The notes: generated by a model from the sequence alone, not told the origin. Positions 45,057 through 58,971 are shown, counted from the first letter of the stretch. The stretch: DNA of 64,000 bases from Oceanococcus sp. (GCA_051252075.1 JBPOFU010000002.1:497-64496), one strand, 5' to 3'. A program made the numbers and translations.

Positions 45057-45599
45057 ATGGCCCCAGCGCGTGCTGTCATCTTTATACTTTGTTTGCTGAA
45101 TGGATTCGGCGCCGCCTGGAGCAGCGACGAACATCTGCAACAATTACGTCAGTTGGATGAAAACATTCAACAAGTGAAGAAATCCGTTCTCGATTTGGAA
45201 CGCGATCTCAACACCTTTAAACAGGAAACTCTGTTTCCTGAATCGCAGCAATTCAGGCTTTTCCTGACTATGGAGGTGTTTGATTTTGACCTCTCTGCCG
45301 TTCAAGTCAGTGCCAACGGCCAACAATTGGCGAAACACGAATACACCGCACGCGAGATCTATGCGCTGCGTAAGGGTGGCGTCCAAGAGCTATTCCTAGG
45401 CAACATTTCCCCCGGCGTACACACCTTGCAGGCACGCTTTTTAGGCCGCTTTGCTGAATCTGGCGAAACGCCTTATGAAAAACCGATAGAAGTGTCATTT
45501 CGCAAGGGGGCTAAAGCGCAATGGCTGGAGCTACGTATAGACGGCAGCCCAGGGCAACAATTGAGTGTGCGCGTATTCGAGCGGGAAGCTAGCCAATGA
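45057..45599 (+). CDS. Secreted protein (coiled coil plus beta-sandwich), first gene of the TPR-ExbBD-TonB cluster
   Basis: Signal-peptide-like N-terminus, heptad segment, then YT.REIYALRKGGVQ.LFLGN...G.H.L.A.F.G; translationally coupled to the next gene. Confidence 0.85.
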   Translation: MAPARAVIFILCLLNGFGAAWSSDEHLQQLRQLDENIQQVKKSVLDLERDLNTFKQETLFPESQQFRLFLTMEVFDFDLSAVQVSANGQQLAKHEYTAREIYALRKGGVQELFLGNISPGVHTLQARFLGRFAESGETPYEKPIEVSFRKGAKAQWLELRIDGSPGQQLSVRVFEREASQ

Positions 45600-47368
45600 A
45601 GCTATTTCCTTGCATCGGTTTGGCCGCGGCCCTAAGCATGAGCTTCGCAACGCAAGCATACGAACCCGCGATCGGCAGCTTTGATTTCAACCGCGCGCTG
45701 TTCAAACATTACAGTCACGACCATCTCAGTGCCGCTGCAGATGCAGCGTCTTTGCCTGAACAAGACACCAGCACACGCGCCTTCGTAGGCGACAACTTGC
45801 TCAGCTACGGCATGTATATGGAGGCGCAACGTATCCTGCGCCCGCTGTTGGCAGAAGGCACCCTATCCGCTGCCAATCGCGCAGATATCTGGCTAAGTTT
45901 GGCCCGCTACGAATTCGAGCGCGGCTATTTGGATGCCGCAGAAATCACTCTGACGGAAATGCGCGTGGATGTCGGCGCGCGTCGCAACCGCACCGAACGC
46001 AATCAACTATTGGCTGAAATTCAGCTTATTAAGGGGCGCGCTTCAGAAGCTATTGCAACACTGACTGAAGGCCGTACCTACGCCAAATCAGAATTCGCGC
46101 GCTATAACTTGGCCATCGCTTTCTTTGCCGCCGGCAATGTTCGCCGCGGGCGCATAGAAATGGACAAACTGGGCCGCCAAGTGGTCAACGACCCCGTGGA
46201 ACATGCTTTGCGTGATCGTGCCAATTTGGCATTGGCCTACAACTACCTGGCTGAAGCCAAAGGCGCTTCCGCGAAACCGGTGCTACAACGCATACGCCTA
46301 GAAGGCCCCTACTCTGACGAAGCTTTGCTGGGCATGGGTTGGGCAGAAATCGCTGGCGACAAGGCCGATGACATCCGCCTGATAGATAGCGACACAGATG
46401 ACACCATTGGTGGCGTTGTCGGTGCCATTTTACGGCCGGGGCGAATCAATGATGATCTGCGGGCACGCCTGGGCATGCTTAATACCGGCTTAAGTACTGA
46501 CACGATGGACCAACGCTTCCGTAAAGCGCTGGTGCCGTGGCTGGAACTGGATGGCCGCGACCCTAAAAAGCCGGCTGTACTGGAAGTGCAACTGGCCATC
46601 CCTTATGCCCTTGATGCCATAGGTGAAAAAGATCGTGCAAGGCAATTCTACGAACGTGCCGTAAAACGCTTAGAAACGGGTCGCACAGGACTAGACAAGG
46701 CGATGGAAGGGATACTCAGCGGGCGCATGATCGAAACCATGATTCGTCGTGATCGTGACCGTCAAGCGGGCTGGAACTGGCGCCTTCGCGATCTTCCCGA
46801 TGCGCCTGAAACCTATTATCTAGCGGAAGTTCTGGCCGACAGCACATTTCAGGAAGCGCTCAAGAACTACCGTGATTTAAAACAATTGCAGCGTAAGCTT
46901 GCAAGCGACCGCCAACTGTTAGAACAAAGTGGCAGTGGCGCCAATATGGCCAGCGTGCCAGCAGAAGAATTGTTCCGCGCCAAACTGCAGGGGCGGGCGC
47001 CTCTGTGGCAAGGCGTACGCAGCAAATTGAAGCTAGAAACCAACCTCGGTCGCTACCCGCGCAATGAAACATTGGAAGGTTTGCTGGCTTGGACCTACCG
47101 CTACGCTCCGAAAGTTGCGTTGCGAGTCGATGGGTCTCATAGCGCATTTCTACGCGGCCCTGGTCAGGATGCCGTCGCGCTGATGCAGCGCAGCGATGCA
47201 CTATTGCAACAAATAAACCCACTGATTCAGGCACAACGTAAATTGCTAGAAGACATCGCTGTAGCTGGTTTACAAGGGCACAAAGCGATGCTCACGCGCT
47301 ACTTGATTGATGCACGTTTTGCCTTGGCCCGCCTGTACGACGAAGTTGAGGTCGGAGGCGACCGCTGA
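45596..47368 (+). CDS. Secreted TPR protein (GltC-like by position)
   Basis: Signal peptide ending ATQA, TPR-like helical repeats (WLSLARYEFERG, ARYNLAIA, ALLGMGWA). Confidence 0.8.
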   Translation: MKLFPCIGLAAALSMSFATQAYEPAIGSFDFNRALFKHYSHDHLSAAADAASLPEQDTSTRAFVGDNLLSYGMYMEAQRILRPLLAEGTLSAANRADIWLSLARYEFERGYLDAAEITLTEMRVDVGARRNRTERNQLLAEIQLIKGRASEAIATLTEGRTYAKSEFARYNLAIAFFAAGNVRRGRIEMDKLGRQVVNDPVEHALRDRANLALAYNYLAEAKGASAKPVLQRIRLEGPYSDEALLGMGWAEIAGDKADDIRLIDSDTDDTIGGVVGAILRPGRINDDLRARLGMLNTGLSTDTMDQRFRKALVPWLELDGRDPKKPAVLEVQLAIPYALDAIGEKDRARQFYERAVKRLETGRTGLDKAMEGILSGRMIETMIRRDRDRQAGWNWRLRDLPDAPETYYLAEVLADSTFQEALKNYRDLKQLQRKLASDRQLLEQSGSGANMASVPAEELFRAKLQGRAPLWQGVRSKLKLETNLGRYPRNETLEGLLAWTYRYAPKVALRVDGSHSAFLRGPGQDAVALMQRSDALLQQINPLIQAQRKLLEDIAVAGLQGHKAMLTRYLIDARFALARLYDEVEVGGDR

Positions 47369-50265
47369 TGAAATTGAAGCTCAGCATCGCTGCGACTACA
47401 GCCGCTTTTGTAGTGGCTTGTGCCACACCTTACGACCCGAAACAGCATCGCAATATAGAGACCCTGGAACAGGCGCCACCGGATCTGGATGCTTTGCTTC
47501 CACCGCGACGCACGCCAGCGCCAACGGCGGCGCCAGTAGCCAGCAGTCAAACGCAGGCGAAACCGACGCTAGATGATGACTTCGCTGACGTAGGCAAGGC
47601 GCGTAAAGCGGTTGAAAATTACCGCCAAATATTGGAGCTCTCTCCCAACGATCGCGTTGTGAAGTGGGAGGCCCAGCGCCGCCTAGCTGATCTACAAGTC
47701 GAAATCAGTGAACTCGACCCGGAATCGGAAGCCAAAGGCATAGCCAGCACCGAAAATTCCATAGACCTGTACAACAGCTTGCTGGACTCGCGCCCCGACG
47801 ATCCTAACAATGACCGTATTTTGTATCAGCTCGCACGGGCTTATCAGAATACTGGGCAAGTCGGTAAAGCAATCGAGTCACTTGCTGAACTCACACGCAC
47901 TTTCCCTCAGACCACCTTATGGACTGACGCTGAGTTTCGTCGCGCCGAATTGCTTTTTAACCAACGCGACTACGAGCCCGCTGAAATTGCCTACAAGGCG
48001 GTTTTAGACCGCGGCGCAGATGGCAATTACTTTGAACAAGCCCAGTACAAGTATGGCTGGGCTGTATTCAAGCAAGAGCGATACAAGGATTCGCTGGACA
48101 CTTTCATAAGCATTCTTGATCGCGAGCTCCCAGTTGGCGCAGTCGAGAACCTCGACGCCACTTTAGAAGTAGTCCCGCGCGCTCAACGAGAGTTGGTAAC
48201 CGACGTTCTTCGCGTCGTCTCATTAAGCTTTTCCTATCTTGGTGGTGGCACAGCCATAACGGAGTATTTGCAAGGTCGCCCCGTTCGCAGTTTTGAGCCC
48301 GTACTGTATGAAAACCTAGCCAAACTTTTCTTAGAGAAAGGCCGTTTCAATGATGCCGCTCGCAGTTACTCAGGCCTCGCAGAGCGCAGCCCCACACACA
48401 AACTGGCGCCGAAATTTCAGGCCCGTGTCATCGATGTATATGACAAAGCCGGGTTTGCAGATCAAGTACTACAGGCCAAGGTTGACTATGTTGAAAAATA
48501 CGACTTAGACCAAGTCTATTGGAGCGCGCATAGTCCAGAGGACTCACCTGAAGCCTATGAAATGCTGCGTGCCAACATGGACGAGTTAGCGCGGCATTGG
48601 CATACCGGCGCGCAGCAAGCAAAAACACCGGCCGACAAAGCGCGCCTGTTTGGGAAAGCCACGCAAACATATGCACGTTATCTCAATCGCTTTGAAGATG
48701 CCGACAACCGGCCAGAAATGAACTTCCTGCTCGCGGAAGCCTTCTTCCAGAGTGGTAACAACGAGAAAGCGGCGGAAGAATTCAGCCGTACGGCATGGAA
48801 TTACCCCGCACATAAACGCTCTTCGGAAGCCGGCTACGCGGCGGTCTTAGCGCGGCAAAATCTTATTGAAGGTACCCAAGGCGAAGCGCGCGGTCAGCGG
48901 GTTCGCGAATCCGTTGCGACGTCTTTAAAATTCGCAGACAGCTTTGCGGGCCACCCGGAGCAACCCAAAGTGCTGATGCGTGCGGCAGAAGATTTGTACG
49001 CCATCAAGCAAGCTGACCAAGCTATTACCTTGGCAACCCGTGTAACCACCTTGCAATCCACTGCCGCTCAAGCCTTGCAGGCACCAGCATGGACTTTGAT
49101 TGGGTTCGCCCACATGGATCAAAAGCGCTATCCCGAGGCTGAGAAAGGACTCAGTGAAGCGCTGAAGCGGGCACCTGCCCAGAGTGAGCAAGCAACAGAA
49201 TTACGTGACAACCTAGCCAGCGCAATTTATCGCCAAGGTGAGCAGGCCCGCGATGCACAACAATTGGATGTTGCGATTGGCCATTTCCTGCGCGTTAAAC
49301 AAGTTCAACCTGGTGGGAAGTTGGCTGCCGCGGGGGACTTCGATGCGGCCGCTGCATTAATAGAACAAGAAAACTGGTCTCAAGCCGCACAGGTCTTGCT
49401 GAGCTTCCGACAGTCCTATCCTCGCCACGAACTGCAAGCTGAAGTTACGCGCAAATTGGCGGGAATCTACCTGAAAGACGATAAACCGCTGCTCGCCGCT
49501 GCTGAGTTTGAACGTATTGCTCGCAGCCAACCGGAAACAGCGCCAGCGCGCCGAGAAGCGGCCTGGCAAGCAGCCAGTCTGTACGACAAGGCCAAGTCCT
49601 TGGCGCAAGCGGAAACGGCGTATGCGTTCTTCGCGACCACATACACACAGCCGTATGGACAGGTTCTCAAGGCCCATGAACGCTTGATTGAATTGAGCGA
49701 CGCGCGTGGTGACCGAGCGGCCAATCGTGGTTGGTTAAATGCGCTGATCGCACGCGAAAATGCAGCTGGAGCACAGTCCAGCCCGCGTGGCCAAACTTTG
49801 GCCGCTCAGGCCAGCCTGACTCTAGCCAATGATATACGCGGCGGATTTGATCGCCTACGCCTCAGTGCGCCGCTCAATCGCAGCCTTCCAACCAAGAAAG
49901 CGGCTATGGATAAAGCGCTGGCGGCCTACCAAGCAGTCACTCGCTATGCGATTGCCGAATTCACCACAGAAGCGACCTTCCAAATCGGCGAGCTTTACGC
50001 AAATTTCTCAAAAGCTTTGATGAAATCGGAACGACCACGCGGTTTATCGGAGTTGGAGCTGGAGGAGTATCAATTCCTACTGGAAGACCAAGCCTTCCCG
50101 CTAGAGGAAAAAGCCATTGAAGTTCATGCCAGCAACATTGCTCGCACTAAAGACAAGATTTACGACAAATGGGTGCGAGCCAGCTACACATCATTGGCCA
50201 GCTTGCTGCCCGCGCGTTATGGCAAAACCGAGCGTCTAGAGGTGATTCTTGAAACCCTGGATTAA
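47368..50265 (+). CDS. Large TPR lipoprotein (GltD/AgmU-like)
   Basis: Lipobox FVVA-C, numerous TPRs (LYQLARAY, AEFRRAELLF, AQYKYGWAVFKQ), C-terminal ELEEY..LLEDQA.PLEEKAI..H..N. Confidence 0.85.
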   Translation: MKLKLSIAATTAAFVVACATPYDPKQHRNIETLEQAPPDLDALLPPRRTPAPTAAPVASSQTQAKPTLDDDFADVGKARKAVENYRQILELSPNDRVVKWEAQRRLADLQVEISELDPESEAKGIASTENSIDLYNSLLDSRPDDPNNDRILYQLARAYQNTGQVGKAIESLAELTRTFPQTTLWTDAEFRRAELLFNQRDYEPAEIAYKAVLDRGADGNYFEQAQYKYGWAVFKQERYKDSLDTFISILDRELPVGAVENLDATLEVVPRAQRELVTDVLRVVSLSFSYLGGGTAITEYLQGRPVRSFEPVLYENLAKLFLEKGRFNDAARSYSGLAERSPTHKLAPKFQARVIDVYDKAGFADQVLQAKVDYVEKYDLDQVYWSAHSPEDSPEAYEMLRANMDELARHWHTGAQQAKTPADKARLFGKATQTYARYLNRFEDADNRPEMNFLLAEAFFQSGNNEKAAEEFSRTAWNYPAHKRSSEAGYAAVLARQNLIEGTQGEARGQRVRESVATSLKFADSFAGHPEQPKVLMRAAEDLYAIKQADQAITLATRVTTLQSTAAQALQAPAWTLIGFAHMDQKRYPEAEKGLSEALKRAPAQSEQATELRDNLASAIYRQGEQARDAQQLDVAIGHFLRVKQVQPGGKLAAAGDFDAAAALIEQENWSQAAQVLLSFRQSYPRHELQAEVTRKLAGIYLKDDKPLLAAAEFERIARSQPETAPARREAAWQAASLYDKAKSLAQAETAYAFFATTYTQPYGQVLKAHERLIELSDARGDRAANRGWLNALIARENAAGAQSSPRGQTLAAQASLTLANDIRGGFDRLRLSAPLNRSLPTKKAAMDKALAAYQAVTRYAIAEFTTEATFQIGELYANFSKALMKSERPRGLSELELEEYQFLLEDQAFPLEEKAIEVHASNIARTKDKIYDKWVRASYTSLASLLPARYGKTERLEVILETLD

Positions 50266-50839
50266 ACACAGTTGCAGCGTATTGCTCATCGCCAGCTTAT
50301 CGGCGTGCTCGCTTATGCCTAAAGGCGAACCTGCGGTCGAAGCAGGATTGAGCACCAAACCCAAAGTGCAATTGCCTGAGGACTACACAGCGGCACTGAA
50401 TCTTATGCAGGCGGAACGCTGGGGGCCAGCTGAATCCGCGTTGAAGGCCTATGCAGCACGTAAACCTTCGCAAAGCAGTCCGCATGTGAATCTCGCGTTG
50501 CTCTACCGCAAAACACAACGCGATGACTTGGCTATGGCCTCCATAGACAAGGCACTAGAGATCAATCCCAAACAAGCTGCCGCTTTCAACCTACGCGGCG
50601 TTTATGCTAGAGAAGCCGGTGACTTTGGCGCGGCCCAGCAAGCCTACTTGGCGGCCATCGCTGCCGACCCACAGTATCCGAATGCTTATCTGAACATGGC
50701 CATTTTGCAGGACCTCTACTTGCACAACCCCAGCTCAGCCCTGCGCATGTACGAAGGCTATGCCGCCCTCGTCGGTGACGACAATGTCGATCAAACTGTA
50801 AAAAGTTGGATTGCTGACGCAAAAAGACAAGCCCGGTAA
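50249..50839 (+). CDS. TPR lipoprotein (GltE/AglT-like)
   Basis: Lipobox LSA-C; TPRs HVNLALLYR, AFNLRGVYARE.G.F..A...Y, AYLNMAILQDLY. Confidence 0.85.
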   Translation: MKPWIKHSCSVLLIASLSACSLMPKGEPAVEAGLSTKPKVQLPEDYTAALNLMQAERWGPAESALKAYAARKPSQSSPHVNLALLYRKTQRDDLAMASIDKALEINPKQAAAFNLRGVYAREAGDFGAAQQAYLAAIAADPQYPNAYLNMAILQDLYLHNPSSALRMYEGYAALVGDDNVDQTVKSWIADAKRQAR

Positions 50840-50844
50840 TCGCT

Positions 50845-51162
50845 ATGACTACTCATTTTTATTGCGGCGCAACAAAACGCGTTCTACACTATGCGACAGT
50901 TGCACTGGCAGCACTTAGTTTTAGCAGCGCATTTGCTCAGTCGGCGAATGAACCTGTTGAGGTCGGTGGCACCACCATTATTGGTGACCGTGAGCTACCG
51001 ATAGGCCTATACATTTCACCGTGGCGCAGTGCGACCCCGGGCGAAGAAATGGATAAGCCTTCACGTTATTTGGATGTAGGCACACAGCCTTTAGATCCTG
51101 AAGTTTTTCGGCGTCAAGTGGAATACCTTGACGCATTGGATGCCGCGGCGCGGCGTAAATAG
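50845..51162 (+). CDS. Small secreted protein (GltF/CglF-like by position)
   Basis: Signal peptide ending SAFA; G.TIIGDRELP.GLYI.PW and P.D.EVFRRQ.EY motifs. Confidence 0.75.
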   Translation: MTTHFYCGATKRVLHYATVALAALSFSSAFAQSANEPVEVGGTTIIGDRELPIGLYISPWRSATPGEEMDKPSRYLDVGTQPLDPEVFRRQVEYLDALDAAARRK

Positions 51163-51181
51163 TCATTTTTAAGGAAAGATC

Positions 51182-51877
51182 ATGGAATTCATGACAGTCG
51201 TTGCGCGCTTCTTCCAAGACGGGGGCGCATTTATGTATCCCATCGTGGTGATGTTGGTTTTAGGCTTAGCTATTGCGATCGAAAGAACGCTGTATTTGCG
51301 CACCACCCGAGTGAGCAATCGAAAAATCTGGGAAGCCGTTGCCCCACTGGTTTCACAAGGTCGCTACGATGCCGCATTGGCGCAAACCGAAGAGTCAAAC
51401 GGTGCCTTGGCCCGGGTCCTTAGCTATGGCTTGGCGCGCATTAAAACAGCGAGTCGCCGGGAAGACCTGGAAATGGCGATGGAAGAAAGCATGATGGAAG
51501 TGCTGCCGCAGCTGGAACGCCGCACCCCTTTCCTGCAAGTGTTTGCCAATGTCGCAACCCTGCTGGGCCTGCTCGGCACCATCATCGGTTTGATTCATGG
51601 CTTTAGTGCGGTTGCCAACGCCAACCCGGCTGAAAAAGCCAATATGCTGTCCGCTTCTATTTCAGTTGCTATGAACACCACGGCATTCGGTTTGATGTGC
51701 GCCATTCCGCTGCTGCTTATTCATGCGTGGCTGCAGGCTAAAACCACTGAAATGGTCGACACTTTGGAAATGACCACGGTGAAGTTCCTCAATCAGTTCA
51801 CAGAAATCCGCAACGCCGCAGGCAACCCGACCAAACCGACTCCTCAAGCTGCTGCTCAACAGCCGCAACAAGTCTGA
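51182..51877 (+). CDS. MotA/TolQ/ExbB proton-channel protein (AglR-like)
   Basis: GG.FM.PI, A.AIER, ANVATLLGLLGTIIGLI..F, ISVAMNTTAFGL..AIP. Confidence 0.95.
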   Translation: MEFMTVVARFFQDGGAFMYPIVVMLVLGLAIAIERTLYLRTTRVSNRKIWEAVAPLVSQGRYDAALAQTEESNGALARVLSYGLARIKTASRREDLEMAMEESMMEVLPQLERRTPFLQVFANVATLLGLLGTIIGLIHGFSAVANANPAEKANMLSASISVAMNTTAFGLMCAIPLLLIHAWLQAKTTEMVDTLEMTTVKFLNQFTEIRNAAGNPTKPTPQAAAQQPQQV

Positions 51878-51885
51878 GTTAGGCC

Positions 51886-52401
51886 ATGAAAGCCCGCTGG
51901 CGCCGTCACCGCCTCCGCCATCAGGAACCGGCGGAGATGAACATTACCGCCTTCATGAATTTGATGGTGATTCTGGTTCCGTTTTTGCTGATCACGGCTG
52001 TTTTCTCACGCCTGGCTGTTTTGGAACTGGACCTTCCCAGCCCAAACAGCGAACCCAGTGAAGAAGACCCAAAACAGAAACTCACTATTGTTGTGCGTGA
52101 AGATGGCATCACGGTGAACGACCGTGGTGGGCTCATCAAAACCATTTCGAAGGTGGCTGGCAGTTACAACCTGCAAGCGCTTACGGATCTGATGGTCGTG
52201 GTGAAAAACAAAGTCCCGCAAGAGACCAGCGCAACTTTGCTGCTGGAGCCCGATATCGAATACGACACAGTCATCCAAGTCATGGATGCCGTACGCATTG
52301 CCAAGGCAGCGCACACCGGCGATACCAAGGATCGAGAATTGTTCCCTGCAATCGCTTTAGGTGACGCTCCGGCCGCCACGAATCAGGAGCCGAATTCGTG
52401 A
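51886..52401 (+). CDS. ExbD/TolR family protein 1 (TM Asn instead of Asp)
   Basis: TM MNITAFMNLMVILVPFLL; periplasmic LEPDIEYDTVIQVMDAVR. Confidence 0.9.
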   Translation: MKARWRRHRLRHQEPAEMNITAFMNLMVILVPFLLITAVFSRLAVLELDLPSPNSEPSEEDPKQKLTIVVREDGITVNDRGGLIKTISKVAGSYNLQALTDLMVVVKNKVPQETSATLLLEPDIEYDTVIQVMDAVRIAKAAHTGDTKDRELFPAIALGDAPAATNQEPNS

Positions 52402-52916
52402 AGCAAACTCGTCGCGCTCATCGCATGGAAGTGAGAGCTCATCGCAAAAATGCTGGCGGCTCCATGAATCTGGTGTCCTTAATGGACATCTTTACCATCC
52501 TGGTATTTTTCCTGTTGGCACAATCTGCGGCAGTAGAAGTGCTGCCGAATACAGACAAGCTGGAGCTGCCGACGTCTTTAGCCGAAGAACATGCGCGTGA
52601 AACCGTGCTCATCATGGTGACGTCCGAGGACATTTTGGTAAATGGCCAGTCCGCCATGAAGACGTCAGAAGCCTTGCGCAGCAGCGATTTATCCGCGCTA
52701 CAAACGGCGCTGGAAGCACAAGCCCAACGCATCGTAAAAGTGGGTGATGGCGACGAGAACGATCGCGGTGAAGTCACCATCATGGCGGATAAAGGTTTAC
52801 CTTACTCGCTGTTGAAAAAGGTCATGTTGGCCTGCACCAAAGCACAATATGGCTTGCTCTCCTTTGCCGTTTTGCAAAAAGATCAAAACACCGTACAACT
52901 GGGAGAAAATGAGTGA
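52398..52916 (+). CDS. ExbD/TolR family protein 2 (TM Asp retained)
   Basis: TM MNLVSLMDIFTILVFFLL; IMADKGLPYSLLKKVMLAC. Confidence 0.92.
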   Translation: MKQTRRAHRMEVRAHRKNAGGSMNLVSLMDIFTILVFFLLAQSAAVEVLPNTDKLELPTSLAEEHARETVLIMVTSEDILVNGQSAMKTSEALRSSDLSALQTALEAQAQRIVKVGDGDENDRGEVTIMADKGLPYSLLKKVMLACTKAQYGLLSFAVLQKDQNTVQLGENE

Positions 52917-53905
52917 CCAGTGTCGCTTTTTCCCGCAACAGTTGGGCTGAGCTCGAACGCGATGAAGCACGTTTTCAACGCACTTTGCTGCTCGTCGCAG
53001 TCCCATTTCTTCTATTAAGCATCCTAATCCCCTTGTGGGAACTGGCTGGTTTAAAAGAGGGCGGCGGCGAAGAACTGTCTGAGCGTTACGCCGAACTACT
53101 CATGCAATCGGCGGCCAAACAAGAATCTCCCGCACCGGAACCTGCCACGGTAGAAGAACCTGCGGATGAACCTGAGCCAGAACCGGAAGCTGAGCCAGAA
53201 TCCGCGCCAGAGCAAGCTGAACCCGAAGTCAAACCCGATCCCAAACCGGAACCAGTTCAACAGGTTGATGCACGTGAACAGGCACGCGAAAAAGTACAAA
53301 AGAAATTCGCCAGCGCTTTCAACGCCTTAGATTCCCTGCGCGAACAAGCACCGGTCATTACCGCAAGCAATCGGCCGCTAACGCAAGCCAGCAGTTCCAG
53401 CGAAGACGTCAGTGATGCCAGCAGCGGTGTACTGACCTCCAACCTAAGCAAAGGCAGCGGCGGTGTCGGCGCAGCGCCAACACGCAGCACACGCCCCAAT
53501 ACAACAGGGTTGAAAGGTCGTCAGACCACCAAGGTTGACTCCGGCATTACCGCCAGTGGCGGCGGTTACGGCGCGGATAACAAGGAAGCAGGCTTTGGCG
53601 GTGACAGCCGCTTGCAAGGACGCTCGCTGGAAGAAATCCAAATCGTTATGGATCGCAACAAGAGTGGTTTGTACTCCCTGTACAACCGCGCCCTACGCAG
53701 CGATGCCACTTTGCAAGGCAAAGTCGTACTGGAAATCACCATCTCACCTTCCGGTGCGGTGACCAGTTGCCGTGTTGCATCCAGTCAACTGGCGAACAAA
53801 GCTTTGGAAGATCGCATAGTCAGGCGCGTGAAGTTGATCAACTTCGGGGCTAAAGCGGTGTCAGAAATGACTATCAAGTACCCGATTCACTTCATTCCCA
53901 GCTAG
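52913..53905 (+). CDS. TonB-like energy transducer (AgmX/PglI/GltG C-terminal domain)
   Basis: Single N-terminal TM, Glu-Pro-rich spacer, Gly-rich segment, C-terminal LYNRALR..ATLQGKVVLEITISPSGAV...V..S.L....E....FG..A. Confidence 0.88.
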   Translation: MTSVAFSRNSWAELERDEARFQRTLLLVAVPFLLLSILIPLWELAGLKEGGGEELSERYAELLMQSAAKQESPAPEPATVEEPADEPEPEPEAEPESAPEQAEPEVKPDPKPEPVQQVDAREQAREKVQKKFASAFNALDSLREQAPVITASNRPLTQASSSSEDVSDASSGVLTSNLSKGSGGVGAAPTRSTRPNTTGLKGRQTTKVDSGITASGGGYGADNKEAGFGGDSRLQGRSLEEIQIVMDRNKSGLYSLYNRALRSDATLQGKVVLEITISPSGAVTSCRVASSQLANKALEDRIVRRVKLINFGAKAVSEMTIKYPIHFIPS

Positions 53906-54441: not shown

Positions 54442-54539
54442 TAAATTAATCAGAGTCCAGTATCTGGATGGTTAGCGTGTCCACGGTCACGCTAACACAA
54501 ACAGATTCGGACTCGAAGATCCTAAATCCGGAGATCACC

Positions 54540-57500
54540 GTGCGTCATACTTTGCAATTGCTCACCCCTATCGTAGGCTTTTCTCTAGCACTGTTTAGTG
54601 CGCACGGCTACACGGCAGAGCCAGCTAGTGGCAATGTGAGCGCGGAATCGCCCAGCACCGAGTTCGACTCGGGACCACACACGATTTCCAATCCATCCTA
54701 CCCGGACGCAGGCACCTGCCAAGAGCCTACCTTCCCGTGCGATGACTATGCATTGACCGTACAGGTACCCGGCTCCGGCGAGCAAGCAATCCTCACCGTG
54801 AGCACAGTGGTTCCTGATGCAGATGACTACGACATTTATTTGCTGGATAGCGATGGCAATGAAATCACCAGTTCCGCTAGCGGTGATGCGGTAGAGGTCA
54901 TGACGCTACCGATCAACACATCCGGCGATCACAATTACACCGTGCGCATCATTCCTTTCTTGGCCACAGCCACGACAGCGACCACCAAAATTGAGCTGAC
55001 TTTCGTTGCAGGCAGCGGTGGCTCGGCCGGTGGCGGCGATGGCAGTGGCACTGGCGGCATAGATCGTGGAGAGCTGCCCTTCGACCCCACCGCACCGCGT
55101 TACAGTATCTATGTATCACCTGCGAATGAAGGCAACGACGCCGGTGAACCAACGGTGGGCTACAACCCGCTCACCGAACGCGCCATGTTTATTTCCTACG
55201 TCAACGCACTGCGTGTGACCTTTCCAGAAAACCTGGATGAGCCCCTGCCACAAGCCTGCGATGCGCTGTGGGAAAACAAATCAGGCTTGATCACGACGCT
55301 AAATTCACTTGATCCGATTATGTACACCGATAAAACCACCGGCCGTACTTTTAATTCTCAGTTGGCCGGCGCGAATAGTTTGTTCGAGTTCTCAGATGAC
55401 GATGGTGAGTCTTGGACCCCTGGCCAAATCGGCTTGCCCAATGGTGGCGCAGATCACCAAGGCGTTGTTTCTGGCCCTTATCCAGATGCTTTGCCCATAG
55501 GCGGCATCCTATTCCCGAATGCCGTGTACTACTGCTCTCAGTCGGTTGCTTCTGCATTCTGTGCCCGCAGTGATGATGGCGGCCAAACCTTTGGCCCCGG
55601 CATGCCGTTCAAAAACACCGACTGCTCGGCTGGTGGCTTGCATGGTCATCCAAAGGTCGCACCTGACGGCACTTTGTATATTCCTGATAGCTCCCAATGT
55701 GTGCTTACCACTGGCGTCGACGGCAGTGCAGACAAGATCGTGGCCTTTGTCAGCGAAGATGCTGGGGCAACTTATGACGTTCGCCCTCTGCCCGACAGCC
55801 AAGGTGGCGCAGGCTCTGATCCCTCCATCGGTATTGCCACCGATGGAACAGCCTATATGTGCTATGAAAACGCGGATGGCACGTCCCGCGTGGCGGTTTC
55901 ACATGACAAAGGTTTAACTTGGGAAAATGACCAAGATATCGGCCTCGCTGCCGGTTTAGTCGCGACCCGCTTCCAAGCCGCCGTGGCTGGCGATCCTGAT
56001 CGCGCAGCCTGCGCATTTTTGGGCACATCATCCGTCGGTCCAGATTTAGAACTCAGCTTTGAAGGCGTCTGGTACCCCTATATCGCCACTACCTATGATG
56101 GCGGCGAAACCTGGCAGTTGGTGAATCTCAGCCCGGGCAATCCGGTTCAAGGTTTTGGTGGCGTCGGCACCAGCGGTACAAACCGCAACTTGCTCGACTT
56201 CAATGATTTGGAATTGGACAACTTGGGTCGCCCGCTGTTCGCCTACGCCGATGGTTGCGTTGGTGGTTGTGAGCGTGACCCGGCCGCCAATGGTTTTGCT
56301 GCCAAGGCCACTTTGGCACGTCAATCTGGCGGGCTGACCTTACTGGCTGAATTCGACAATCTTGCCAATAGCCAACTTACGACAGCGCAACTGGCTCCAG
56401 CCGCTGCTTGCGCATTGCAAGATAAAAGTTCACGCACGGTGAACCAAACTGTCGTTGCTTGGCGCGCCCCCGACAACGGCGGCACTCCCATCAGCAATTA
56501 TCAGGTCTACCGCGCCACTCAAGCGCAAGGGCCGTTTGAATTCATCGGTGATGCTGGCAGCAAGACCACCTTTGTCGATACGTCTTCAGACGTCAGCGTT
56601 GCCGAATACTCCTACCGCGTTGTTGCTCAGAACGCCGTTGGAGACGCTGGCCAATCCAATGTCGTGACATTGCCAATTCAAACGCAAACCGAAGTTGATA
56701 CCTGCCACCTGCCTGGGGAAATCATATTGCTCGACTCAGCCGGAGATAGTGCTGGGGTCGATGATTACGACATTATTTCCGCAGCGGTCGCAGAGCCAGC
56801 CGAATTCCCGGGCAGCTTGGCGATTACTTTGAAATTGGCCAATTTTACCACCGGAGCGCCTCCGGCAACCTCGTTTTACCCGATTTTGTTCCCACTGCTG
56901 AACAATCGTTACATTGCATTCGATGCAAGCAGTGCACCGCGCTTTGTCTACGGCACTACGACAGAAGGCCCGCAGGGTCTACTCATCTTTACAGAAGAGG
57001 GTGAGCTTGATCCCGCCAGCAGCTATGGTGCAGATGGGACAGTGGTATTGATTGCCGACAAAGCTCTCTTTGGCAAGAGCACTGGTGATTTGTTGGCCGG
57101 TTTTGACATTCGTGCACGCGCTGGCTCAGCAACAGCTACCAGCCGTGATACCGCAGGGCCAGGGGAATATGAGCTTCGTGGTCATGAAAATTGTGGCGCT
57201 GTTGACGCGGCCCCCTTGCTGGCCACGCTCGCCGGTAGCACGCAATCAGGAAATGCCCCACTGACTGTAGACTTTGTCATCTCTGGTGCGTCCAGCGAAA
57301 GCACGCTCACGAGCTGGTCTTTGGACTTCGGCGACGGCCAATTTGTCGAAGAACAAAGTTTTGGCAGTGCTAGCAACGCTGAAATAACCCACGTCTACCA
57401 AGAAGCTGGGGTTTTCCGTGCACGCGCCACGGTGAAGAACAGTGAAGGTCAGGTCAGCGAGAATTTGGCCGAGCACACCGTGACTGTCGATCCTGAAGAC

Positions 57501-57623
57501 ACCACGGGCGGCGATGGTGGTGATGCAGGCAACCCTGGCCCCAGTGCGCAGCGTGGCGGCTCCTTAGGCGGCGGTTTCCTCATGCTGCTGATGCTGCCTC
57601 TGCTGCGGCGCCGTCGCAGCTAA
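54540..57623 (+). CDS. Surface protein: PPC-like domain, Asp-box (BNR) beta-propeller, FN3, PKD, GlyGly-CTERM anchor
   Basis: GTG start after GGAG and signal peptide; five Asp boxes (SDDDGESW, SDDGGQTF, SEDAGATY, SHDKGLTW, TYDGGETW); FN3 W.AP.NGG.PI.NY.VYR; PKD WSLDFGDG..H.Y...G; C-terminal GGSLGGGFLMLLMLPLLRRRRS. Confidence 0.88.
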   Translation: MRHTLQLLTPIVGFSLALFSAHGYTAEPASGNVSAESPSTEFDSGPHTISNPSYPDAGTCQEPTFPCDDYALTVQVPGSGEQAILTVSTVVPDADDYDIYLLDSDGNEITSSASGDAVEVMTLPINTSGDHNYTVRIIPFLATATTATTKIELTFVAGSGGSAGGGDGSGTGGIDRGELPFDPTAPRYSIYVSPANEGNDAGEPTVGYNPLTERAMFISYVNALRVTFPENLDEPLPQACDALWENKSGLITTLNSLDPIMYTDKTTGRTFNSQLAGANSLFEFSDDDGESWTPGQIGLPNGGADHQGVVSGPYPDALPIGGILFPNAVYYCSQSVASAFCARSDDGGQTFGPGMPFKNTDCSAGGLHGHPKVAPDGTLYIPDSSQCVLTTGVDGSADKIVAFVSEDAGATYDVRPLPDSQGGAGSDPSIGIATDGTAYMCYENADGTSRVAVSHDKGLTWENDQDIGLAAGLVATRFQAAVAGDPDRAACAFLGTSSVGPDLELSFEGVWYPYIATTYDGGETWQLVNLSPGNPVQGFGGVGTSGTNRNLLDFNDLELDNLGRPLFAYADGCVGGCERDPAANGFAAKATLARQSGGLTLLAEFDNLANSQLTTAQLAPAAACALQDKSSRTVNQTVVAWRAPDNGGTPISNYQVYRATQAQGPFEFIGDAGSKTTFVDTSSDVSVAEYSYRVVAQNAVGDAGQSNVVTLPIQTQTEVDTCHLPGEIILLDSAGDSAGVDDYDIISAAVAEPAEFPGSLAITLKLANFTTGAPPATSFYPILFPLLNNRYIAFDASSAPRFVYGTTTEGPQGLLIFTEEGELDPASSYGADGTVVLIADKALFGKSTGDLLAGFDIRARAGSATATSRDTAGPGEYELRGHENCGAVDAAPLLATLAGSTQSGNAPLTVDFVISGASSESTLTSWSLDFGDGQFVEEQSFGSASNAEITHVYQEAGVFRARATVKNSEGQVSENLAEHTVTVDPEDTTGGDGGDAGNPGPSAQRGGSLGGGFLMLLMLPLLRRRRS

Positions 57624-57677: not shown

Positions 57678-57716
57678 TGTTGAAAGCAAATGCTCAATAG
57701 CAAGGTCTTGATCAGT

Positions 57717-58223
57717 ATGAATAAGCAAAAACGCTTTGAGGCGCTGGTCGAGGGCCATTCCAGCGCCCTCTACCGCTACGCCTACTGGTTATGCGATGGC
57801 CACAAAACCAATGCAGAAGACGTGGTGCAAGAAACCTTTCTTCGTGCTTGGAAATCGCTAGAGCAACTGCAAGAGCACCAAGCGGCTAAAGCGTGGTTGA
57901 TGACCATCTTGAGACGGGAAAATGCACGCCGCTTTGAACGTAAACAATTTGACTACGTAGATGTAGAGCTCGATAGCGTGAGCTTAGACGAACAGCAATT
58001 GGAACGGCACATGGATAGCCATGAACTGCGCCGCGCCATTGCACAACTGGAACCGAAATACCGCGAACCCCTATTGATGCAAGCCATAGGTGGGTTCTCC
58101 TGCGAGGAGATCGCCGAGACCATGGACATCAACAAAGGTGCGGTTATGACTCGCCTGTTTCGAGCGAAGAAATTGCTGAGCTCGCAAATGACACAAGATA
58201 CTAAGGACCAGCGCCATGGATGA
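57717..58223 (+). CDS. ECF sigma-70 factor
   Basis: LYRYAYWL, AEDVVQETFLRAW, AWLMTILRRE, L..L..KYREPL.MQ..GGFSCEEIA, V.TRLFRA. Start set at ATG 57717. Confidence 0.95.
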   Translation: MNKQKRFEALVEGHSSALYRYAYWLCDGHKTNAEDVVQETFLRAWKSLEQLQEHQAAKAWLMTILRRENARRFERKQFDYVDVELDSVSLDEQQLERHMDSHELRRAIAQLEPKYREPLLMQAIGGFSCEEIAETMDINKGAVMTRLFRAKKLLSSQMTQDTKDQRHG

Positions 58224-58971
58224 ACTCGAAATGCGCCGGCGCTGCATTGCGGCCCCCAACGATCCCGATCCGGCCTACCAAGAGTGGCTGAATCAACACC
58301 CCGGCGCCAAAGGCGTCGCTCTACAAGCCCGCCACTTTGATGAACGCTTACGATTCGCCCTGCAAGATGTGGACATCCCTGACGGTTTGAATGGACGTAT
58401 TTTGCTTGGCAGCAGCTTGCGCACTCCGCGCCGCAGTCGGCAGCGCTGGCTAGCGGGCTTCGCGGTAGCGGCCTCGGTGTTAATCAGTGTTGGCCTGTGG
58501 TTCAACCCCAGCCCTAGCGTTGCAGGAGGGTTCCAACAGCTGGCCTTGAATCATGTGTACGACGAAATCCACCATTTTGAGCACCCGTCTGGTGGCATCT
58601 CTGACAGCATGGTCAGCAATCTGTTTCAACAAGTCGGTGGCCAGCTCAAGGGCAGTTTAGGCGACATCAAATTCGCCTTCATGTGTCCCACCCCAAGCGG
58701 GGAAGGCTTGCACTTGGTTGCCGACAATTCAGCGGGGCGTGTCACCGTACTGTATGTACCCAATGCCAGCAAAGGCACTCAGGCCGTAGCATTCGCCGAT
58801 GAGCGCTTCCGTGGCAGCACGCTGCTACCGGCTGCCGGCGGAGCCTTGGCCATTATCGGAGAGAACCCCCAAGCCGTTGAGCTGATGGAACAAGCTCTGG
58901 ATGAAGCAGTTCAGTGGCAAACCTCTAATCTGGCCACTGATACCTGGGAGCACTCATATTTCGCCGTTTAA
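58216..58971 (+). CDS. DUF3379 family putative anti-sigma factor
   Basis: MDELE.RRR..A.PND, FD..L..AL..V.IPDGL..RILL, single TM (FAVAASV), periplasmic H..E and CP...GLHLV; overlaps the sigma gene. Confidence 0.85.
   Translation: MDELEMRRRCIAAPNDPDPAYQEWLNQHPGAKGVALQARHFDERLRFALQDVDIPDGLNGRILLGSSLRTPRRSRQRWLAGFAVAASVLISVGLWFNPSPSVAGGFQQLALNHVYDEIHHFEHPSGGISDSMVSNLFQQVGGQLKGSLGDIKFAFMCPTPSGEGLHLVADNSAGRVTVLYVPNASKGTQAVAFADERFRGSTLLPAAGGALAIIGENPQAVELMEQALDEAVQWQTSNLATDTWEHSYFAV

Follow-up and report, generated by a model that had tools for sequence, protein, structure and literature searches.

In Myxococcus the Agl motor serves both the Glt and the Nfs machinery. A related core complex, the Group B genes, was defined by Luciano et al. 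2011 (PMC3169522) as gltD, gltE, gltG and gltC together with aglR, aglQ and aglS and one extra gene that has no myxobacterial homologue, and published examples of it are known from Cellvibrio japonicus (CJA_3312-3319), Marinobacter aquaeolei (Maqu_1595-1598 and Maqu_1813-1814), Hahella, Saccharophagus and Teredinibacter (PMC3169522; Wartel et al. 2013, PMC3858216). Taken by themselves the core genes do not suffice for motility, most core hosts are not known gliders, and the function of the core was given as unknown (PMC3169522); later Agl-Glt papers likewise describe a standalone machine of unknown function, and a literature search on the locus tags of the published core clusters found no functional study. 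Here we describe an operon of nine genes at positions 45057-53905 of a 64,000-nucleotide stretch of Oceanococcus sp. DNA (GCA_051252075.1, JBPOFU010000002.1:497-64496; hereafter the window, meaning the whole of this stretch), which, with a probability of roughly 0.85, belongs to the Agl-Glt core complex family of Gammaproteobacteria and encodes a standalone machine of the Tol/Ton/Mot kind that spans the envelope and is powered by the proton motive force.

The nine open reading frames, p1 to p9, fill the interval on the + strand, with successive junctions of -4, -1, -17, +5, +19, +8, -4 and -4 nt. The preliminary description of this DNA had recognised a co-directional, mostly overlapping nine-gene operon here, and the reading frames, their junctions and the domain calls for p1-p9 (Pfam and NCBIfam models with curated cut-offs) all agree with it. 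Taken in the order of the published Cellvibrio japonicus cluster, p9 to p2 encode 330, 172, 171, 231, 105, 196, 965 and 590 residues, with a further 180 in p1, compared to the 323 (GltG), 173 (AglS), 181 (AglQ), 231 (AglR), one unlisted gene, 244 (GltE), 964 (GltD) and 660 (GltC) residues of CJA_3312-3319 (PMC3169522, Table S3). The operon holds the gene content of the core complex, namely one TolQ/ExbB-like protein, two different TolR/ExbD-like proteins, one TonB-like protein, tetratricopeptide repeat (TPR) proteins of ~950 and ~200-250 residues, a TPR/helical protein of ~600-660 residues and a small extra gene, and it shares the order, sizes, single-cluster layout and gammaproteobacterial host of the published clusters. 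It differs in having nine genes rather than eight, p1 being a separate gene, and in its host, an Oceanococcus-like member of the Nevskiales, an order outside the 2011 survey. Extra partial copies in one genome, present here, have also been reported for Marinobacter, Hahella and Saccharophagus. The Agl-Glt-core-like composition first suggested for the operon is well founded, as order and sizes match the published gammaproteobacterial clusters, p9 passes the AgmX/PglI C-terminal domain model NF033768 and p6 groups with Agl-type channels, and it is equally correct that the kind is known from phylogenomics with its function unknown (PMC3169522 and later papers). The further suggestion of an undescribed system cannot be kept: clusters of this type received their description and name in 2011 (PMC3169522), their function being the one point left to settle.

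The nine-gene arrangement is far beyond chance: when 56 related loci with enough DNA on either flank are compared, p2-p9 occur in the same order in 54-56 of them, and the full set of nine does so in 43. Colinear operons are present in Nevskiales, Woeseiaceae, Chromatiales, Steroidobacteraceae and others, across dozens of species. The closest relatives of p3, the largest protein, are encoded by Oceanococcus metagenome-assembled genomes (72-77% identity) and then by Oceanococcaceae (47%), followed at 36-44% by other Nevskiales, Woeseiaceae, Chromatiales, Thiogranum, Steroidobacteraceae and others. Relatives of p3 are present in at least 586 species genomes, and in an even sample of 400 gammaproteobacterial genomes a p3-like gene (match at E<=1e-30) is found in 77 (~19%), representing 62 of 321 genera, with two matches in 21 of those genomes.

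The motor is encoded by p6 (51182..51877, + strand, 231 residues), an AglR-like MotA/TolQ/ExbB channel protein (PF01618, 99.7 bits), by p7 (51886..52401, + strand, 171 residues), the first ExbD/TolR-like subunit, in the AglQ position (PF02472, 60.6 bits), and by p8 (52398..52916, + strand, 172 residues), the second such subunit, in the AglS position (PF02472, 54.6 bits). None reaches an NCBIfam equivalog cut-off: p6 scores 34 bits against the 206 needed for exbB, 46 against 135 for exbB2 and 58.5 against 221 for tolQ, and p7/p8 score 23 against 216 for ExbD and 38.8 against 127 for tolR. Comparison was made with a locus of Halobacteriovorax (Bdellovibrionota) in which the genes encode, in order, a CglD-like MIDAS protein, an OMP_myx_plus barrel (112 bits, above cut-off), a GltC-like protein (125 bits), a 79-residue protein, a channel protein, two ExbD proteins, a 954-residue protein, a TPR protein and an FHA-GltG-like protein (109 bits; 57 bits with NF033768), and which, judged by these genes, belongs to the gliding type of Agl-Glt cluster. 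With the AglR-position channel of this locus p6 shares 36% identity, compared to 27-32% with the ExbB paralogues of its own genome, and the best Halobacteriovorax matches of p7 and p8 are the first and the second ExbD of the cluster, respectively. The Halobacteriovorax channel is a close relative of a Bacteriovoracaceae member of the p6 family, which is one of the 140 cluster representatives, out of 13,246 ExbB-type matches, that make up this family at E<1e-30; a search from the Bacteriovoracaceae AglR-like protein retrieves Bdellovibrionota only. In a maximum-likelihood tree p6 lies within a 37-sequence clade (Shimodaira-Hasegawa-like approximate likelihood ratio test, SH-aLRT, 99) that joins a 55-sequence clade holding the Bdellovibrionota Agl channels (support 96) in a larger grouping of weak support, to which none of the eight p6 paralogues of the same genome belongs. 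This two-clade picture is like that of Luciano 2011, in a tree and comparison that carry no M. xanthus anchor. By sequence, the affinity of p6-p8 is with Agl-type motors and not with TolQ, ExbB or MotA proper.

The two ExbD/TolR-like subunits are dissimilar at a site of functional importance. TolR and ExbD carry their proton-binding Asp at a defined position of the transmembrane segment. In p8 this Asp is kept (LMDIFTIL), as it is in 67 of 67 family members. At the same position in p7 it is replaced by Asn (FMNLMVIL), a substitution seen in 49 of 68 members of that family, the remaining 19 having Asp.

The putative outer-membrane part consists of two lipoproteins. p3 (47368..50265, + strand) is a GltD-like TPR lipoprotein of 965 residues with the lipobox VVAC, whose Cys18 is invariant in 14 homologues; Pfam and NCBIfam models assign to it many TPR and YbgF/BamD-like repeats, and its size and position agree with those of CJA_3318, Maqu_1813 and similar genes. 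Profile-profile comparison by hhalign matches the p3 family to the GltD-position family (954-residue protein) of Bdellovibrionota Agl-Glt clusters with 90% probability and E 1.6e-6 over 719 colinear columns, while the p3 family profile matches the single Halobacteriovorax sequence weakly (E 3e-3); it is through this Bdellovibrionota family, and not by direct comparison with MXAN_4870, that p3 is linked to GltD. We consider p3 to be probably the central scaffold of the machine. p4 (50249..50839, + strand), of 196 residues and with the lipobox LSAC, is a TPR lipoprotein in the GltE position.

Several of these features bear on the main rival explanation, that the operon encodes a second Tol-Pal-like system, i.e. 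an energised tether between the inner and outer membranes that serves outer-membrane constriction, lipid homeostasis or envelope integrity and handles no cargo. Such a tether overlaps the core-complex reading in mechanism and differs from it only in the output proposed. In its favour, the solved structure closest to p6 is that of TolQ (8odt, E 3e-11), the best NCBIfam matches of p6, p7 and p8 are tolQ and tolR, p3 contains four YbgF/CpoB-like stretches beside its BamD-like repeats, p3 and p4 are lipoproteins as is Pal, and no cargo or barrel gene is conserved near the operon. The overall likeness extends to a 5:2-type motor driven by the proton motive force, an arm that is anchored in the inner membrane and carries a C-terminal domain like those of TonB and TolA, outer-membrane lipoproteins and CpoB-like TPR repeats. 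However, the cluster is without a TolB or Pal homologue, the TolQ and TolR scores of its motor subunits lie far under the equivalog cut-offs (58 against 221 and 39 against 127 bits, respectively), its TPR proteins are much larger, and its TolR-like pair would be heterodimeric rather than homodimeric. A complete ruvAB-ybgC-tolQ-tolR-tolA-tolB-pal-cpoB cluster is already present on contig C209 of the same genome, absence of the machine from ~80% of Gammaproteobacteria indicates that it is not general housekeeping, and paralogous modules that have no motor genes suggest exchangeable outputs. On balance we regard the tether as unlikely, although it is the strongest contender to membership of the core complex family.

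The protein expected to transmit force across the periplasm is p9 (52913..53905, + strand, 330 residues), a GltG-like protein of TonB type in which a single transmembrane helix is followed by a spacer rich in Pro and Glu and then by a C-terminal domain of AgmX/PglI type. With the model of this domain, NF033768, it scores 67.6 bits (70.8 in the genome search) against a cut-off of 40, which neither E. coli TonB nor any of three further TonB-like matches from its own genome reaches, and 14 control genomes gave no above-cut-off match to the myxobacterial AgmX/PglI or GltC models. The GltG model NF033760 is matched at E 1.7e-9 over only the last ~160 model positions (36.8 bits against a cut-off of 650), and hhalign aligns the p9 family with the C-terminal domain of the Halobacteriovorax FHA-GltG protein at E 3.5e-5. 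p9 itself has no FHA match, and only ~22 cytoplasmic residues precede its transmembrane helix. The C-terminal domain of another protein of this genome also passes the AgmX/PglI model, at 42.6 bits against the cut-off of 40: this is a stand-alone protein of 440 residues with several predicted membrane segments (C190:54402-55724, corresponding to L097:9400-10722, minus strand), and it has no Glt- or Agl-like neighbours.

That p9 also passes the TonB_C and TIGR01352 cut-offs, and that p6-p8 belong to the ExbB/ExbD family, would be in keeping with an ordinary if divergent TonB-ExbB-ExbD energiser that acts on receptors encoded elsewhere, the TPR proteins being accessories; a Pro-rich TonB-like protein with a TonB_C fold is common to both. 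We think this very improbable. No ExbB, ExbD or TonB equivalog model is satisfied, p9 scoring 27 against 265 bits with the TonB equivalog and all TonB equivalogs being far from cut-off, and the operon departs from uptake systems in its two distinct ExbD paralogues in conserved order (one of them, here, without the membrane Asp), its AgmX/PglI-type C-terminal domain and five conserved periplasmic or lipoprotein partners that have no counterpart there. No receptor partner is evident: TonB-dependent receptor, tolB and pal genes are absent from the operon and from the other window ORFs scanned, as had been stated at the outset for the operon itself, and neither receptor nor adhesin genes are among the conserved neighbours of the operon in 80 loci. 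The genome moreover has three other ExbB-type clusters, on contigs C1, C159 and C188, in each of which a 451-462-residue MotA_ExbB protein stands beside a 173-187-residue ExbB-like protein, and which resemble the TtpC-ExbB-ExbD-TonB2-type systems of marine bacteria. Given these three clusters and the Tol-Pal genes of C209, the operon is not the Tol-Pal system of this organism, nor is it the only Ton system there, and its initial separation from both TonB uptake and Tol-Pal is justified, with no TonB, ExbB, ExbD, TolQ or TolR equivalog cut-off reached.

The first two genes of the operon encode secreted proteins. p2 (45596..47368, + strand) is a TPR/helical protein of 590 residues with weak TPR matches, and has the position and size class of the published 'GltC (MXAN_2541) homologues' (584-660 residues). 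p1 (45057..45599, + strand) has 180 residues, a signal peptide and no family match; its AlphaFold2 model (mean predicted local distance difference test score, pLDDT, 90.9) comprises, besides the signal peptide, a helix of 36 residues (24-59) and a beta-sandwich, for which a Foldseek search of the PDB returned generic transthyretin-like sandwiches only (best E 1.6e-3) and no informative relative. By tblastn p1 lies upstream of p2 in 45 of the 56 loci, in loci L023, L024, L028, L031 and L095 it forms the N-terminal part of a single protein with the p2 homologue, and its profile matches the N-terminus of a 660-residue p2-like paralogue on contig C57 (hhalign E 2.7e-6). These fusions and the match on the C57 paralogue show that p1 is a split-off, detachable N-terminal domain of the GltC-like protein, which as a separate gene brings the number here to nine compared to the eight of the literature.

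p5 (50845..51162, + strand) is a secreted and mostly disordered protein of 105 residues, with a signal peptide and no family match. Its family has the conserved motif G-T-x-I-x-G-[ND]-x-E-L-P-x-x-L-Y-I-x-P-W, followed by P-x-D-x-x-V-F-x-R-Q, and its AlphaFold2 model is disordered except for a helix in the signal peptide, a short hairpin of low confidence and a C-terminal helix (residues 85-104), the last being the sole confident part. According to the AlphaFold model published for the Myxococcus machine, the C-terminal helix of GltF is inserted in a crevice of GltC and a beta-strand is paired with the TonB-like domain of GltG. p5 represents the 'additional gene' reported for the core, and its disorder, conserved strand motif and confident C-terminal helix make it GltF-like in layout, the GltF label being one of position and layout only. 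Each of the three p2-like genes of this genome (in the window and on contigs C153 and C57) is accompanied by a p5-like gene, which fits a p2-p5 pair. The 79-residue protein of the Halobacteriovorax locus (L099:9751-9990) is likewise secreted, is encoded directly upstream of the AglR-like gene and shows both p5 motifs by eye, as LGNLEVKGQLLAP and DRKVFERAL; it may be the Bdellovibrionota counterpart of p5/GltF.

Not all comparisons favour assignment to the core complex family. The GltC model NF033756 gives no match on p2, and alignment of the p2 family with the Halobacteriovorax GltC-like protein is not significant (hhalign E 0.13), nor is that of the p5 family with the 79-residue protein (E 0.02). 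p4 scores 35 bits against a cut-off of 225 with the GltE model NF033758, and PilW scores higher; TPR proteins, furthermore, are prone to inflated profile scores. The link to Myxococcus GltD, GltC, GltE and GltF runs via the published table and the Bdellovibrionota cluster and not by direct comparison, no outer-membrane barrel or cargo gene is conserved beside the operon among the neighbours in 80 loci, and every protein-protein contact in the machine is inferred. The Glt names given to the genes in the preliminary description therefore fare unequally: those of p3, through its GltD-position profile match, and of p9, through its AgmX-type domain, are sustained, but the GltC and GltE models do not specifically recognise p2 and p4, and the labels GltC (p2) and GltE (p4) are based on position and on the published table, as GltF (p5) is on position and layout.

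With the Myxococcus Agl-Glt and Agl-Nfs machines the operon shares a motor of TolQR type whose two TolR-like subunits differ from each other, a TonB-like protein that has an AgmX-type domain at its C-terminus, a large TPR lipoprotein as pillar, accompanied by a small TPR lipoprotein, a GltC-position protein, a small disordered bridging protein and one motor apparently common to several periplasmic modules. As the operon is homologous to the core of the Myxococcus machine, it might be proposed to drive surface (gliding) motility in the same way. This we consider the least probable of all the alternatives. The Myxococcus machine has GltA/B/H barrels and an FHA domain on its TonB-like protein, whereas the 94%-complete genome examined here contains no GltA/B/H-type barrel above the cut-off of the OMP_myx_plus model TIGR04565 (best 20.4 bits against 60, on another contig) and p9 is without an FHA domain, and therefore without an evident cytoplasmic platform or MglA control. 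GltI, GltJ, GltK, CglB/CglD and MglA/AglZ were not found in the operon or its conserved flanks, the genome at large not having been searched for them, and the operon proteins do not satisfy the Myxococcus GltG, GltE and GltC equivalog models. To this is added the published finding that core genes alone are not enough for motility and that most of their hosts are not known gliders (PMC3169522).

Two further modules in this genome encode relatives of the periplasmic and lipoprotein components but no motor. On contig C153 (L098:8541-15711, minus strand) are genes for a 655-residue p2-like protein, a 944-residue p3' that is 37% identical to p3, a TPR lipoprotein p4' and a 95-residue p5'; the 655-residue protein is probably a p1+p2 fusion, the p1 match being weak (E 0.06). 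On contig C57 (14490-16771, + strand) the gene for the 660-residue p1+p2-like fusion is followed, with a 4-nt overlap, by that for a 100-residue p5-like secreted protein, and no p3, p4 or motor genes lie alongside. One motor may drive several modules, by analogy with Agl, Glt and Nfs in Myxococcus.

The C153 module stands directly after a DUF3034-globin-FMN_bind-PepSY_TM block, with gaps of 4 and 12 nt to the upstream PepSY_TM and FMN_bind genes. This block is conserved across the order, and is followed by ApbE in two of six sister-family loci. PepSY_TM/FMN_bind was considered as a general part of the paralogue operon and rejected, as the link is confined to the window's own genus and family. 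In the wider family an ApbE flavin transferase and/or a TlpA/AhpC-type periplasmic redoxin is encoded directly upstream of the operon and co-directionally with it in 50 of 80 related loci (among L032-L096; Woeseiaceae, Chromatiales, Thiogranum, Steroidobacteraceae and others), and neither ApbE nor a TlpA-like redoxin is found upstream in the Nevskiales loci, the window included. From the frequency of ApbE/redoxin genes, the C153 block and the ApbE that follows the same block in sister families, it could be argued that a single AglRQS-GltG unit drives interchangeable periplasmic modules, each of a GltC-like protein and p5 with or without GltD/E-like proteins, and that its work is coupled to an extracytoplasmic flavin/thiol redox set instead of to the transport of polymers or adhesins. 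We offer this as a doubtful proposal, less probable than the Tol-Pal-like tether.

Based on homology to the solved ExbB5-ExbD2 and TolQ5-TolR2 complexes and on the published AlphaFold model of the Myxococcus machine, our predicted assembly of the core complex would have five copies of p6 forming an inner-membrane channel around a p7/p8 heterodimer, in which, in this lineage, the protonatable Asp would be on p8 alone. Proton flow would move the transmembrane helix of p9, whose Pro-rich arm would span the periplasm and whose C-terminal domain would dock on the outer-membrane lipoprotein scaffold p3, with p4. In this arrangement p5 would act as a bridge, its conserved strand pairing with the p9 C-terminal domain and its C-terminal helix binding p2, with the sandwich domain of p1. 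The output would be mechanical work on the outer-membrane-anchored scaffold that moves, positions or releases envelope cargo, and we read it as neither nutrient import via a TonB-dependent receptor nor gliding. It is probable, too, that the two modules without motor genes, both of which contain p2- and p5-like genes, are driven by this motor.

The surroundings of the operon are housekeeping genes on the upstream side (dnaQ-like, gloB and mltD), the MltD-like gene ending 207 nt before p1. The gene 3' of p9 is on the opposite strand, and downstream of the operon are genes for a lipoprotein, a BNR/PKD protein and an extracytoplasmic function (ECF) sigma factor with its anti-sigma factor. Elsewhere in the window the large ORFs scanned were identified as alaS, recA, mutS, lysC and Mrp-type antiporter genes. 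Promoter and terminator scans of the operon region did no better than shuffled sequences, and an Rfam search of the region gave no match. The BNR/PKD gene (window 54468-57623, + strand) encodes a secreted BNR/fn3/PKD protein of 1051 residues with the C-terminal end GGSLGGGFLMLLMLPLLRRRRS, and is followed at window 57690-58971 (+ strand) by the ECF sigma gene and a DUF3379 gene, the latter taken as its anti-sigma factor. A secreted protein of 550 residues that adjoins the C153 cluster (L098:325-1977, + strand) has a similar tail, GGGAVTWLLLIAGLGFGRRMSQR, and both tails look like sorting signals of the GlyGly-CTERM (rhombosortase) type.

The core complex is among the most widespread envelope motors without a known job, and the gliding and spore-coat machines of Myxococcus are presumed to descend from it. 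What this instance adds is p1 as a detachable GltC-like domain, p5 with the GltF layout, two motor-less modules and the loss of Asp in the first ExbD, details which are modest in themselves. The presence of p5 homologues with the GltF layout beside every GltC-like paralogue suggests an ancestral GltG-GltF-GltC force path, as proposed for Myxococcus, and a first TolR-like subunit that in most family members is without the proton-binding Asp implies a stator with a single working Asp. For tractable hosts such as Cellvibrio japonicus or Marinobacter, the parts list as sharpened by this operon leads to predictions that are testable.

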